Below, piece after piece: positions 55,592 through 63,985 of a DNA stretch of 64,000 bases (the first letter of the stretch is position 1; each line of letters starts with the position of its first letter). The stretch covers positions 66,100 to 130,099 of the forward strand of contig CAIJZX010000016.1 in the NCBI GenBank assembly GCA_903825245.1, written 5' to 3'. The position numbers were made by a program, and so were the translations under genes. The notes under the pieces are model-generated. The model was not told the DNA's origin and did not search any database. It saw only the letters and a program-made list of their open reading frames with translations. Origin of the DNA: Candidatus Kerfeldbacteria bacterium (GTDB lineage Bacteria > Patescibacteriota > Patescibacteriia > SBBC01 > CAIJZX01).

Positions 55592-55633
55592 GCTGAAGCC
55601 ACTTTAGCACGCCATAAGCCTTTCGGCAAGTCA

Positions 55634-55736
55634 ACCCAGCACCACAATGGGGACGGCTATGGTCATCAAATTAGGAGATTTAAAAACAAAATACACATTT
55701 TTTGAAAAACACAAATTTTGCATTGTGGTGCTGGGT
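55634..55736. repeat. Perfect 16-bp inverted repeat (ACCCAGCACCACAATG / CATTGTGGTGCTGGGT) around a 71-bp AT-rich spacer
   Basis: Arms at 55634-55649 and 55721-55736 are exact reverse complements. The repeat sits at the left edge of the AT-rich island. Confidence 0.8.
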
Positions 55737-55802
55737 CAAGCTAGCACCACTATGGCTTAATTGAAATGACGTACTAACGATTCCCTTTTTGCTCGGTTAT
55801 GC

Positions 55803-57377
55803 TTATTCCAGCCGATCTTTAAAAAACTGCCTTAACTCAGGATCAACAATATATACATATGTTCCTTCAATTCCACGAGTCAAAAGAGTTTTATATATAT
55901 TGATTATATATCGCTCAAGTTCTTTTGGGTCATCTGTTCCACGCTTACCATTCATATCAAAATATTTTTCGACGTGTATTTCAAATTTTCGATATGTCTT
56001 GTTGTAACTAATCTCTGGGCCAATAATCACTCCGGCATAATTTAAATCGTAGCCCTGAACCGTATGAATACAACCCACTTCATTAATAGCGTTTTTAGAA
56101 TTAACCCAGTTTTGATTAACACTATTCCACTTTAATTGCACTCCATCAATTTCAATGTCATGCATACTTGGATCTTTTTTTGAAATCCAAGGCCAAGCAT
56201 ATCCGGAAATAACCCTGCATAACTCCATTTCTCTATCGCGATGCTTAATATCTGACACCATTTTCTCAATATTGTCGTAAATCTGAAAATCATATTTGGT
56301 AAACGTCTCGGGTTTAGCGTCAACAACGTCAAATATATTTTGAATAAAGCTTATGTACTTTTCACCTTCTTCCCCCGCTCCAACTCTCATTTGAGTATTC
56401 AGAGTATACTGCTTAGCTTTTAACCTAGGATAAATTTCGTGATTGATGTCGGATGGTCGAACATGTTGGCCTTTATCGTAAAACAGGATTTGTTGTTTTG
56501 AGGAGCGCAGAATCCAATCAAGTTCGTTGCCATTATTTCCTAACCCAAGTTTTTTATTAGTAATATCAAAACTGGCGTAATTGGTGATATTTTTTCTTTG
56601 ACGTAAACGATGTGCTTCGTCAATAAGCAATAAATCATATTTTTTGTTAACTACTTCGTTCGGCCCAATAACCATGTTCGATTTCAATCCAGTAACATTT
56701 TGGAATACTTTTTTTAGTGTTTGACGCAAAGACGTCATTGGCACTACTAATGCAATTTCAAGATTTTTTGTTTCTTGAATTTCCTTTAGCGATTTCATAA
56801 GAAAGGTCGCCAAAATAGTTTTTCCCGTGCCAGGGCCACCGTTGATGATAAAAGTCGATGATGTACCCATTCGGATTTCTTCGAGTAGTGAAGTAACAAT
56901 CTCTCTTTGATCGTCTGTAAGTGCTTTATACGGTGAATATTTAAATACGTCACTATTCTTTATTTGCACTAAATCTTTCTTTGCTAATGACATTTCTTGT
57001 AACTGAACCCATAGCCGTTCAAACTTAGCCTGGTACTTCTGGCGATCAAAATAATTATGGTTTAACAATCCCTGATTTCCATTCTGCAACGTAAAAAGTC
57101 CATCAGCAGCCATAAACTGTATAAGCGATGATTCTATATCAAGTGTTGCGGATTTATTGTATTCTTCATCGGTTATTATATGCATTCTGTCGAGCTTGCG
57201 ACGCTCGGGATTATCATAGTGTTGATTGCCTCGGTTGAACGCATTTACAGTTTCTCCGATGTAAATCTCTTTTTTATTTTCTAATATATAAACAACGGGC
57301 CAGTTGCGCCCGAAAGTATACGAACGAATTTTCTCGAATTGCTCCTTGCTGAAGGAAAATGTTTCTATCTGAGACAT
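55803..57377 (-). CDS. GIY-YIG nuclease domain fused to a DUF2075/SF1-helicase-like P-loop ATPase
   Basis: N-terminal WPVVYILENKKEIYIGETVNAFNRGNQH (GIY-YIG). Walker A INGGPGTGKT, Walker B LLLIDEAHRL, C-terminal helicase-like region with HTVQGYD. About 33% GC against a window background near 50%. Confidence 0.7.
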   Translation of the reverse strand: MSQIETFSFSKEQFEKIRSYTFGRNWPVVYILENKKEIYIGETVNAFNRGNQHYDNPERRKLDRMHIITDEEYNKSATLDIESSLIQFMAADGLFTLQNGNQGLLNHNYFDRQKYQAKFERLWVQLQEMSLAKKDLVQIKNSDVFKYSPYKALTDDQREIVTSLLEEIRMGTSSTFIINGGPGTGKTILATFLMKSLKEIQETKNLEIALVVPMTSLRQTLKKVFQNVTGLKSNMVIGPNEVVNKKYDLLLIDEAHRLRQRKNITNYASFDITNKKLGLGNNGNELDWILRSSKQQILFYDKGQHVRPSDINHEIYPRLKAKQYTLNTQMRVGAGEEGEKYISFIQNIFDVVDAKPETFTKYDFQIYDNIEKMVSDIKHRDREMELCRVISGYAWPWISKKDPSMHDIEIDGVQLKWNSVNQNWVNSKNAINEVGCIHTVQGYDLNYAGVIIGPEISYNKTYRKFEIHVEKYFDMNGKRGTDDPKELERYIINIYKTLLTRGIEGTYVYIVDPELRQFFKDRLE

Positions 57378-57382
57378 CAGGA

Positions 57383-57769
57383 TTACAGTTCGTTGTACTT
57401 TTTATCACTATCCTTCGCCTTCTCAATAGGATATTTCTTTGCGTTCAATTCCATTTTCTGTTTAAACGCCGATTTAATATCAATACCGAGGTCGTGGCTG
57501 AGGAGCAATACCCAATACAAAACATCACTTAGTTCCTCACCAAGATCTGTTTTATGTTCTTTTAGATATTTTTCTAAATGTTCGTTATTTTTCCACTGAA
57601 AATGTTCTAATACTTCGGTCGCCTCAAGTACTAAAGACAACGCCAAATCCTTCTCGTTATGAAACTGCTTCCAGTTCCGATCGTTTCGAAACTTGAGGAT
57701 AATATCGGTCAGTTCCTGAATATCAGTCATACTGCGTAAAGAACTCGTCGTTCTTTGCCCGTTTGGCAT
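57383..57769 (-). CDS. MazG-like all-alpha nucleoside triphosphate pyrophosphohydrolase
   Basis: EATEVLEHF and ELSDVLYWVLLLSHDLGIDI motifs of the MazG/HisE-like NTP-PPase fold. Ends 5 bp before the downstream ATPase gene on the same strand. AT-rich. Confidence 0.6.
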   Translation of the reverse strand: MPNGQRTTSSLRSMTDIQELTDIILKFRNDRNWKQFHNEKDLALSLVLEATEVLEHFQWKNNEHLEKYLKEHKTDLGEELSDVLYWVLLLSHDLGIDIKSAFKQKMELNAKKYPIEKAKDSDKKYNEL

Positions 57770-57912
57770 TGGTGAGATTGCTGTTAGCCATAAGGAAATG
57801 GTACGCCTTTTTCGCTAAGAAATCAATAAAAACTACTTATTGACAAGCCGATGCTTTTGGTGTATCATTCCTCTACTAAACGTAGGCCGGATATCTCGTA
57901 TGTCCGGCCGGT

Positions 57913-58542
57913 TTATTTGTGCTCAAATTTGAGTTCGTGTTCAAGACGAACGAAGTCTCGAAAATTTGATCCGGCGAACTGCTTAATCTCTCGTGCCGTA
58001 CGCGGCCCACGAGCGAGAACGATAACTTCTTTACCTTGCTGTTGAATGTGTTTCAAGACCGCTAAAAAATCGCCATCTCCGGAAAGCACAAGTACTCGAT
58101 CATAGTCGGGCAAATCGCGCATCATGGCGAAGGTCATGTCAACATCGCAATTCGCCTTTCGTTTTACCGAACCATCGTCTTGATGATAGGTCTTCACTGG
58201 TTTGAGCACGAGATGGTAACCAAACTGTTCAAGCAGTAAGTAAAACCGGACGCGCTGAAGGTGTTTGCCAGCAATCAGTAACTCAGCTTCATTCAAGTTT
58301 TTGCCTTGGCGCTTGATATTGTCGGCGAGATGACGTTCTAGGTCTTGTAACGGTACGGTCTCATAATGAAGATAGTCATTATGAAAGTTATTCGTTTCAA
58401 CGCCACCAAAGTAATAAACCCGCGTAACATCGTACTTCTTTCGTAAATATAGTAGGAGTTTTTTGTAATCGATTTTCCAGCCTAAACTTTTCTCTCCGCC
58501 ATAGAAGAGGTTTGAGGCATCAATATAGACGTAGGTTTTCAT
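57913..58542 (-). CDS. NYN-domain (LabA/DUF88-like, PIN-related) predicted ribonuclease
   Basis: YIDASNL...VLVLSGDGDF acidic motifs of the NYN fold. Confidence 0.6.
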   Translation of the reverse strand: MKTYVYIDASNLFYGGEKSLGWKIDYKKLLLYLRKKYDVTRVYYFGGVETNNFHNDYLHYETVPLQDLERHLADNIKRQGKNLNEAELLIAGKHLQRVRFYLLLEQFGYHLVLKPVKTYHQDDGSVKRKANCDVDMTFAMMRDLPDYDRVLVLSGDGDFLAVLKHIQQQGKEVIVLARGPRTAREIKQFAGSNFRDFVRLEHELKFEHK

Positions 58543-63169: not shown

Positions 63170-63985
63170 TTAGGCTTCGTCTTCGTCAGATTTCTTCTTG
63201 GCAGTCTTTTTCTTCTTCGGTTCGTCATCAGCTGATTCGTCTGTTGTTTCAACCGGTTCTTCCACCGTTTCGACTACCGCTTCCGTGGTGACCATGCCAG
63301 CGGCATTGTCGAGGACGAAACTAAAGTGATCGACGAGGATTTTGGCCGCCTGTTGCAATGCTTCTTGCGGCGTCACGGTACCATCGGTCGTAATATCGAG
63401 TAACAATTTATCGTAGTTGGTCATTTGGCCGACGCGGACGTTCTCGGTCGTGAAATTCACGTTCTTCATCGGCGTGTAAATCGCATCGAGAGAAATCGTA
63501 CCAAGCGGCAGGCGTTCTTTTTCGCGATTTTCTACCGGGACATAGCCGCGGCCTTTGCCGACGGTCAATTCCACTTCGAACTTGGCTGCTTTATCGGTTA
63601 AGGTGGCGATGTGTTGCTTCGGGTTGAAGACTTCAACATCAGCATTGCCTTTAATATCGGCGGCCGTCACGTCGCCGGCTCCGGTCTTGGAGATGGTTAC
63701 CGTTGTCGGTTCGTCGGTATGAATCTTGAGGCGGACGAGTTTCAGGTTCAAGAGAATATCAACCACGTCTTCCTTCACGAACGGTAGGGTCGAAAATTCA
63801 TGCGTCACGCCTTCGAATTTGACCGCGGTAATCGCGCCGCCAGCCAAGGACGATAGTAAGACGCGTCGCAAGGCGTTGCCGACGGTCATACCATAACCTG
63901 GGTAAAGCGGTTCGACGGTGAACGTGGCGCGGTGATTGCGCTGTTCGTCCTGCGTCAGGGATGTTGGGAGTGGTAACGTTTCCAT
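63170..63985 (-). CDS. rpoA: RNA polymerase alpha subunit (N-terminal domain with charged tail; no canonical alpha-CTD)
   Basis: Alpha-NTD dimerisation motifs (EPLYPGYGMTVGNALRRVLLSSL). Ends in an acidic/Lys tail after about 240 aa. Confidence 0.75.
   Translation of the reverse strand: METLPLPTSLTQDEQRNHRATFTVEPLYPGYGMTVGNALRRVLLSSLAGGAITAVKFEGVTHEFSTLPFVKEDVVDILLNLKLVRLKIHTDEPTTVTISKTGAGDVTAADIKGNADVEVFNPKQHIATLTDKAAKFEVELTVGKGRGYVPVENREKERLPLGTISLDAIYTPMKNVNFTTENVRVGQMTNYDKLLLDITTDGTVTPQEALQQAAKILVDHFSFVLDNAAGMVTTEAVVETVEEPVETTDESADDEPKKKKTAKKKSDEDEA

Follow-up and report, generated by a model that had tools for sequence, protein, structure and literature searches.

Within the 64,000-nucleotide stretch of Candidatus Kerfeldbacteria DNA analysed here (the window), a single ORF combines GIY-YIG nuclease motifs with those of an SF1-like motor. 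This raises the question of whether the gene is a self-contained antiphage effector, as a preliminary description of the sequence had proposed, or belongs to a larger unit. We utilized translation, Pfam and PADLOC profile searches, AF2 modelling with Foldseek comparison and the fetched loci of 82 relatives to characterise the gene, its partner, its mobility and its possible role. The region 55803-57730 (-) of the window is a mobile two-gene cassette, which we infer from its genomic context to act most likely in defence against foreign DNA (a probability of about 0.6).

Domain architecture of the nuclease-helicase gene

The ORF claimed in the preliminary description is present, with an ATG start and a product of 524 amino acids, and translation placed all of the motifs quoted there at the expected residues (Table 1). 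On its profile match the C-terminal two-thirds of the product is unambiguously assigned to the DUF2075/Schlafen-group-3 helicase domain, PF09848 matching with an E-value of 7.1e-66 (223 bits against a cutoff of 24) over positions 2-354 of the 354 in the Pfam profile. The full-length AF2 model (pLDDT 87.1, pTM 0.81) places the Walker A/B motifs and motifs V and VI of the window protein in a predicted two-RecA-lobe SF1B fold, and Foldseek matched this model to RecD, SLFN11, Upf1, Dna2, RecD2, Dda and nsp13 with probability 1.00 and E-values of 1e-8 to 1e-10. Sequence searches of the PDB, with the window protein and with a 46-sequence profile as queries, returned no informative match, the best being RecG at an E-value of 0.002. 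In an alignment of 83 sequences the Walker A and B motifs, Q304, Q329, R331, motif V and R501 are conserved at 95-100 %, and ATP-dependent unwinding or translocation by the helicase is predicted.

Table 1 Features of the cassette region, in window coordinates
Feature	Position	Strand	Basis or detail
Downstream spacer element	55630..55755	-	Perfect 16-nt inverted repeat 55634-55649 / 55721-55736 and a third near-copy
Fusion gene of GIY-YIG nuclease and DUF2075 (Schlafen group 3) SF1B helicase	55803..57377	-	ORF, PF09848, AF2, Foldseek
N-terminal domain, residues 1-150	56928..57377	-	GIY-YIG core, residues 26-100 (57078-57302), then helical linker
Helicase region, residues 152-524	55806..56924	-	Coordinates checked by translation
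Walker A of helicase region	56817-56840	-	Translation
Walker B of helicase region	56610-56633	-	Translation
Helicase motif V, GCIHTVQGYD	56046-56075	-	Translation
Helicase motif VI, KTLLTRG	55872-55892	-	Translation
MazG-like all-alpha NTP pyrophosphatase, DCTPP1-like, 115 aa	57383..57730	-	PF12643, PDB matches

The GIY-YIG assignment was at the outset the least secure part of the domain reading. PF01541 scored 16.7 bits on the window protein, below its Pfam cutoff of 22.6, and Foldseek searches with the isolated head gave E-values without significance (UvrC, 0.065). More distant members of the family pass the PF01541 cutoff (P0359, 31.3 bits; P0292, 27.6 bits; P0279, 26.4 bits). Residues 1-150, modelled separately with AF2 (pLDDT 82.9), show the canonical beta-beta-alpha-(alpha)-beta-alpha core, and the catalytic set of Tyr (GIY), Tyr-x-Gly (YIG), Arg, Glu and Asn is complete in the head, with Y30, Y39, G41, R49, E82 and N99 each 100 % conserved and H53 99 % conserved across 83 sequences. 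The modelled core, the invariant catalytic residues and the Pfam matches of distant members together establish the GIY-YIG fold, and metal-dependent DNA cleavage by the head is predicted. The preliminary description's fusion of a GIY-YIG nuclease to a DUF2075/SF1-like motor was thus borne out at both ends of the protein, by the fold and residues of the head and by the profile and structural matches of the helicase. The gene is a real and intact feature under purifying selection.

An exhaustive search with residues 1-150 returned 616 clusters at 50 % identity. The head is N-terminal in nearly all of the 150 proteins listed, beginning at residue 65-75 in three of them, and 75 of these 150 are at least 500 amino acids long, while the shorter ones may be fragments. 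Since the head is N-terminal and often found in long proteins, this GIY-YIG subtype is largely dedicated to the nuclease-helicase architecture, with the exception of the same head carried on a KAP NTPase on a Bacillus plasmid.

Length variation among the relatives is due to an optional C-terminal module. The long form, found in 47 of the 82 relatives, is of about 670 amino acids and ends in a Peptidase_S24 domain matching LexA (6e-13) and UmuD (1e-9). A UmuD-like Cys-Gly site is present in 41 of the 47 under a strict pattern and the GDSM serine in 46, together with a conserved lysine. All 10 of the tested distant members longer than 700 amino acids carry the domain, and the neighbour-joining tree requires at least 13 switches between short and long forms. 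The window protein is a short form lacking the S24 domain. We rejected the possibility that it is a truncated long form, as no S24 sequence is present in the protein or anywhere in the 64-kb window and 35 of the 82 loci hold genuine short forms.

Pairing with a MazG-like pyrophosphatase gene

The gene directly upstream encodes the pyrophosphatase listed in Table 1, its stop codon lying 5 nt ahead of the ATG of the nuclease-helicase gene. Mechanical calling extends this ORF to 57769; the 115-amino acid form agrees with homologues and is exactly on record. PF12643 matches the product with an E-value of 6e-18 (65.3 bits against a Pfam cutoff of 27), and full-length homology was found to the PDB entry 4qgp (3e-18), mouse RS21-C6/DCTPP1 (8e-16) and human DCTPP1 (9e-14). 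The acidic metal-binding residues E49, E52, E55, E79 and D82 are each conserved in at least 95 % of sequences. DCTPP1 cleaves dCTP with a preference for 5-modified dCTP, so that modified cytosines stay out of DNA, and a comparable activity on dCTP or 5-modified dCTP is predicted for the partner by homology.

In 81 of the 82 fetched loci a MazG-like gene directly precedes the nuclease-helicase gene on the same strand, with a median gap of 2 nt, and the remaining locus, which ends at a contig edge yet keeps the C-terminal part of MazG, brings the pairing to 82 of 82. No further neighbour is shared by more than 12 of the 82 loci; a housekeeping context was looked for and no housekeeping operon was found, the partner gene being the only constant neighbour. 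In a blastn comparison with the locus of a 90 %-identical relative (P0001) homology was restricted to 57723-55842, approximately the two genes, at 81 % identity. The constant pairing and the limitation of DNA homology to both genes identify the two-gene cassette as the unit of inheritance.

The pairing recurs well outside the immediate relatives, on the Bacillus thuringiensis plasmid pIS56-233 (33-34 % identity), on a high-GC contig where the pair adjoins a PLD-helicase restriction-type protein (38.6 % identity), and on a plasmid of Bacillus sp. PGP15 where a GIY-YIG/KAP NTPase gene lies between both partners. In Ligilactobacillus salivarius (28.5 % identity) the order is reversed, with MazG 5 nt downstream, and the pair adjoins a type I R-M system and an integrase. 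For two DUF2075 genes that lack the GIY-YIG head, taken as controls, the annotation shows no adjacent MazG. None was annotated near three distant GIY-YIG-bearing relatives in the PLSDB gene tables, which are incomplete, and given these relatives the partner may be dispensable for the core activity.

These observations bear on the single-gene framing of the preliminary description, the part of its overall reading that did not stand beside the sound domain assignment. A stand-alone effector of Nhi type, beside which the MazG-like gene happens to lie, would accord with the resemblance of the architecture to Nhi and Nhi-like proteins and with the few distant homologues that lack an annotated MazG. 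It is however contradicted for this clade, where adjacency in all of the loci with near-zero gaps, transfer of both genes as a unit and the same pairing in other phyla, also in reversed order, exclude a chance neighbour and make this reading highly improbable.

We expected the two genes to co-evolve, but the correlation between MazG-like and helicase distances was weak (Mantel r 0.12), which leaves a physical complex of the two proteins unsupported. Two MazG subtypes, about 53 % divergent and found in 67 and 13 loci, are both catalytically intact and are scattered over the helicase tree, which is itself poorly resolved; together with the weak correlation this scatter could reflect either partner exchange or a star-like tree without resolution. 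In either case the pattern suggests that the partner is an enzyme acting in trans rather than a co-evolving binder.

It bears likewise on a toxin-antitoxin (TA) or abortive-infection reading, in which the nuclease-helicase would be a self-toxic effector and the MazG-like protein its antidote, by binding or by nucleotide destruction, until infection frees the toxin and the cell dies. The order of a small upstream and a large downstream gene with a gap of 0-5 nt is similar to that of TA operons, TA modules are frequent among the neighbours of the cassette, and Nhi slows host growth (bioRxiv 10.1101/776245). Against this, the strict conservation of the MazG catalytic residues identifies the protein as an enzyme and not merely a binder, the two subtypes are dispersed over the helicase tree with no co-evolution signal, no MazG is annotated near some of the distant relatives and the gene order is reversible, so that we consider this reading distinctly unlikely.

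Other elements close to the cassette were considered as additional members. The spacer downstream of the nuclease-helicase gene contains the repeats listed in Table 1, and the predicted RNA fold of 55600-55810(-) has an energy of -62.7 kcal/mol (z -3.4). It is possibly a terminator or a cassette-boundary structure, and whether it belongs to the cassette is uncertain. The NYN gene of the window was rejected as a member of the system, as NYN homologues occur in only 3 of the 82 loci. It also shows a promoter-like site of its own, and a hairpin follows its stop codon.

Distribution, mobility and genomic neighbourhood

The family comprises more than 7,400 matches, the best of which are full-length at 58-90 % identity, and is carried by at least 585 species genomes, overwhelmingly of Patescibacteria. 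RpoA of the window host has its nearest named relatives in Patescibacteria, Kerfeldbacteria and Veblenbacteria, which makes the host a CPR bacterium as well. The AT-richness noted in the preliminary description was confirmed, the cassette having a GC content of 0.363 against 0.489 for the remainder of the window. The same holds across the family, where the GC content of the cassette lies below that of its flanks in 70 of 76 loci (mean -6.3 points, Wilcoxon p=2e-13). The cassette is horizontally mobile and its flanks vary. In the window the cassette and the separately transcribed NYN nuclease gene stand inside a glycosyltransferase cluster.

Mobility of this kind could also be that of a selfish element, either a GIY-YIG homing-endonuclease-like gene that cuts empty sites or phage-derived DNA-metabolism genes left as a prophage remnant. 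We scanned 2.9 million viral contigs (IMG/VR) with the family-specific motif V pattern GCIHTVQGYD and obtained 0 matches, while a phage collection yielded four weak matches only. The absence of the motif from viral contigs and the few weak phage matches indicate that the cassette is cellular and not phage cargo. Further, the window island showed neither an integrase nor a nearby tRNA, and no convincing direct repeats or target-site duplication at its flanks, and the helicase/ATPase motifs, superfluous for a homing nuclease, are strictly conserved, leaving a selfish origin the most improbable of the readings considered here.

The neighbourhood of the cassette is rich in genes of genetic conflict. 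Among 150 immediate neighbours the most frequent families were SocA_Panacea (antitoxins with HTH; 6), Mrr_cat (5), Fic (5), MrcB_N (3), RhuM (3) and NYN (3), and matches were also obtained to the PADLOC type IV REase, SoFic, PDC-S41, PDC-S23, PDC-S05 and PDC-S02 models. The PDC-S41 protein proper (a DUF2075 protein of 658 amino acids, E 1e-290) adjoins the cassette in 3 loci. In all, the immediate neighbours matched 165 PADLOC families against 37 for 133 control genes at least 4 kb away, which were of housekeeping type (tRNA synthetases, sigma-70, FtsW, phosphoglucomutase, dUTPase); the control is a rough one, with smaller ORFs and counts without formal statistics, and its direction is clear. 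Distant relatives on plasmids adjoin McrC/AAA, a UvrD-helicase protein or DUF3578.

The principal rival to a defensive role is an accessory module for DNA repair and nucleotide-pool sanitation tied to the SOS response. CPR bacteria are thought to depend on nucleotide salvage. In such a module the DCTPP1-like enzyme would clear non-canonical pyrimidine dNTPs, the GIY-YIG helicase would excise or process lesions or stalled forks in the manner of the GIY-YIG incision domain of UvrC, and the S24 domain would couple the enzyme to RecA* as in UmuD. Repair and SOS would be served equally well by a 'house-cleaning' enzyme of DCTPP1 type and a domain like that of LexA/UmuD, and the identity of 55-70 % across CPR classes is unusually high for defence genes and counts against defence. 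The distribution of the cassette is however patchy, the cassette alone has moved between unrelated flanks at a GC content below that of its host, its neighbours are mostly restriction, TA and Fic genes and not repair genes, and plasmid copies adjoin R-M/McrBC systems. On this evidence we regard a repair module as rather unlikely. The neighbourhood of restriction, toxin-antitoxin and Fic genes fits the logic of a defence cassette.

A candidate defence mechanism and its relation to known systems

If the cassette is defensive, by analogy with Nhi the ATP-driven SF1B helicase would load onto ssDNA or onto replication or recombination intermediates of the invading DNA and deliver to them the GIY-YIG head, which would nick or cleave these intermediates (compare Nhi, with another nuclease head). 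Acting in trans, the pyrophosphatase would change the pool of pyrimidine dNTPs, either by depleting dCTP or 5-modified dCTP required by the invader, or by keeping modified dCTP from host DNA such that a modification-sensitive nuclease would spare self. In the long forms the S24 domain probably holds the enzyme latent; RecA-ssDNA filaments, which have this effect on LexA and UmuD, or a comparable trigger would then induce self-cleavage at the Cys-Gly site and detach the S24 domain. The short form in the window would be without this S24 lock.

A fuller version of this proposal, which we put forward only tentatively, is an undescribed immunity that combines a Schlafen-type nuclease-helicase with a nucleotide-pool enzyme. 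The partner would starve invaders of dCTP or modified dCTP, or would protect self from a modification-dependent nuclease by preventing salvaged modified cytosine nucleotides from entering host DNA, and the effector in its ancestral or long form would be licensed when RecA* induces the LexA-like domain to cleave itself. Were this the case, the cassette would represent a bacterial counterpart of the logic of SLFN11 (damage-triggered) and SAMHD1/DCTPP1 (acting on the dNTP pool), and, among the defence modules of CPR bacteria, one of the most widespread. A defensive cassette would bring together, in a compact and readily testable unit, the editing of nucleotide pools, the sensing of DNA damage and a Schlafen-type motor, and would offer a prokaryotic model for the coupling of Schlafen helicases to nucleases.

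Very few defence systems have so far been identified in Patescibacteria (PMC12366544), and the cassette is not among the systems in a functional-metagenomics paper on the defences of this group. The combination of GIY-YIG and DUF2075 domains received a brief mention in 2019 (PMC6765204). No description of the cassette in terms of its MazG pairing, S24 fusion or CPR prevalence was found in the literature, of which journals were covered in part. The invariant two-gene pairing with a DCTPP1-like enzyme, the LexA/UmuD-type domain in more than half of the members and the abundance in Patescibacteria thus appear to be unreported. Neither the window protein nor the long form P0003 nor the Bacillus relatives gave a full-length match in searches of PADLOC-DB v2.0.0. 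PDC-S14 models match the N-terminal 145 residues (E 1.5e-7) and PDC-S41 weakly matches the C-terminal part of the helicase region (3e-6); these matches are partial and at the level of domains, and neither model describes this architecture or a two-gene unit.

The components of the cassette each have counterparts in other settings. DCTPP1/RS21-C6, with which the partner shares its full-length homology and acidic metal-binding motifs, is a stand-alone housekeeping enzyme, whereas here its homologue is firmly tied to a nuclease-helicase as part of a mobile cassette. LexA and UmuD share the Cys-Gly site, the GDSM serine and the lysine with the long-form relatives, in which however the S24 domain is the tail of a nuclease-helicase and not of a repressor or polymerase subunit. 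SLFN11, SLFN5 and SLFN13 (Schlafen group 3) have PF09848 in common with the window protein, and SLFN11 is among its top structural matches (E 1.2e-9) despite a sequence identity of 12-13 %. SLFN11 also joins a nuclease to a helicase of this family and acts at sites of replication stress and DNA damage, and the S24-bearing relatives likewise suggest a coupling to DNA damage. The SLFN nuclease, in contrast, is an N-terminal tRNA/RNA endoribonuclease fold and not GIY-YIG, and SLFN proteins have no MazG partner.

The closest parallels are with Nhi (SERP2475) of Staphylococcus epidermidis, an antiphage protein that degrades phage replication intermediates (Bari et al., bioRxiv 10.1101/776245). Nhi and the related AbiO, like the window protein, combine a nuclease at the N-terminus with an SF1-type DUF2075 helicase in one fusion. 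The comparison with the Nhi family drawn in the preliminary description holds only in part. The PADLOC models of Nhi (E 3.6e-16) and AbiO (3.8e-15) both correspond to the first half of the helicase region, residues 143-373 aligning to positions 174-366 of the 470 in the Nhi model, and the head of Nhi is PD-(D/E)XK/HsdR-like whereas that of the window protein is GIY-YIG. Nhi is encoded by a single gene and no S24 domain has been reported for it, in contrast to the constant MazG-like partner of the window clade and the S24 domain of its long-form relatives. With a different nuclease fold, a partial helicase match and two genes, the window system is not a member of Nhi. [quoted passage not shown] 2022, bioRxiv 10.1101/2022.05.11.491447); it is of the same architectural class, likened by description and not by sequence or nuclease type, and was described as one protein without a pyrophosphatase partner. 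By these analogies the nuclease-helicase and its pyrophosphatase are best read as a probable variant of the Nhi-like nuclease-DUF2075 theme.

Partner genes and domains of the nuclease-helicase

We compared MazG-like subtypes with the nuclease-helicase tree using the 80 loci that carry an untruncated MazG-like gene, drawn from the related cassettes L001-L082 and the window. Two subtypes of the MazG-like partner can be distinguished, with 67 and 13 loci and approximately 53 % divergent, which are spread near-randomly on the nuclease-helicase tree (10 changes versus 12.3 ± 0.8 with random labels). The Mantel correlation between the two genes was only 0.12. Such a pattern means either that partners have been exchanged or that the phylogeny is an unresolved star.

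A LexA/UmuD-type S24 self-cleavage domain, including its Cys-Gly site, forms the C-terminus in over half of the nuclease-helicase's close relatives (L009, L016, L019 and 44 other loci; residues ~525-676 in the long-form relative P0003), with at least 13 gains or losses of the domain among relatives. This would put a Schlafen-type nuclease-helicase under a switch of the DNA-damage type, an arrangement that seems not to have been described previously. At the more distantly related locus L083 the same GIY-YIG head is fused to a KAP-family P-loop NTPase in place of DUF2075, and this gene lies between the MazG-like gene and a GIY-YIG-DUF2075 gene, suggesting that the nuclease head can be swapped between proteins as a module.

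Features neighbouring the cassette and elsewhere in the window

Coordinates of the features discussed
Feature	Location	Strand	Details
NYN-domain (LabA-like) nuclease gene	window 57913-58542	-	209 aa; Pfam NYN 1e-22
Inverted-repeat spacer	window 55630-55755		downstream of nuclease-helicase gene
RpoA	window 63170-63985	-	271 aa
GIY-YIG + KAP-family P-loop NTPase	L083 3513-5573		686 aa; Bacillus sp. PGP15 plasmid p1
Distant GIY-YIG-DUF2075 homologue	L090 1-2481		F. sanfranciscensis pLS1
DUF2075 protein, PDC-S41 type	L001 184-2160; L032 6051-8027; L057 5813-7786		658 aa

The NYN gene, whose product also matches the PADLOC models NYN (8e-16) and HEC-09 (5e-7), adjoins the cassette within the same low-GC island. 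It has a promoter-like site of its own (TTGACA-17-TATCAT, 58577-58549) and a GC-rich 10 bp hairpin 3′ of its stop codon (57885-57909). Just 3 of 82 loci have an NYN homologue beside the cassette, so the gene is more likely a conflict gene in its own right than part of the cassette.

The spacer contains a perfect 16-nt inverted repeat (55634-55649 and 55721-55736, arms 71 nt apart), found nowhere else in the window (chance expectation 0), together with a third near-copy. The transcript fold of this region reaches -62.7 kcal/mol (z -3.4). The element may represent a terminator, a small RNA or the scar of an insertion.

RpoA of the window has only 271 residues; the ~120 CPR proteins closest to it are of similar length (232-282 aa) and, like it, end in an acidic/lysine-rich tail. 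Canonical bacterial RpoA also has a C-terminal domain model, which is not among the precomputed Pfam matches of these proteins; those are to the N-terminal domains PF01000/PF01193, with PF13656 also matched by one relative.

Gene neighbourhoods of related loci

The distant homologue at L090 adjoins cytosine deaminase and cytosine permease genes, with no MazG annotated at that locus. This cytosine-metabolism setting is curious, since other homologues have a dCTPase-like partner. In three loci the cassette is immediately adjoined by a second DUF2075 protein, a full-length match to the PADLOC candidate defence-system model PDC-S41 (E 1e-290), which shares DUF2075 with the cassette nuclease-helicase but differs from it in the N-terminal region.
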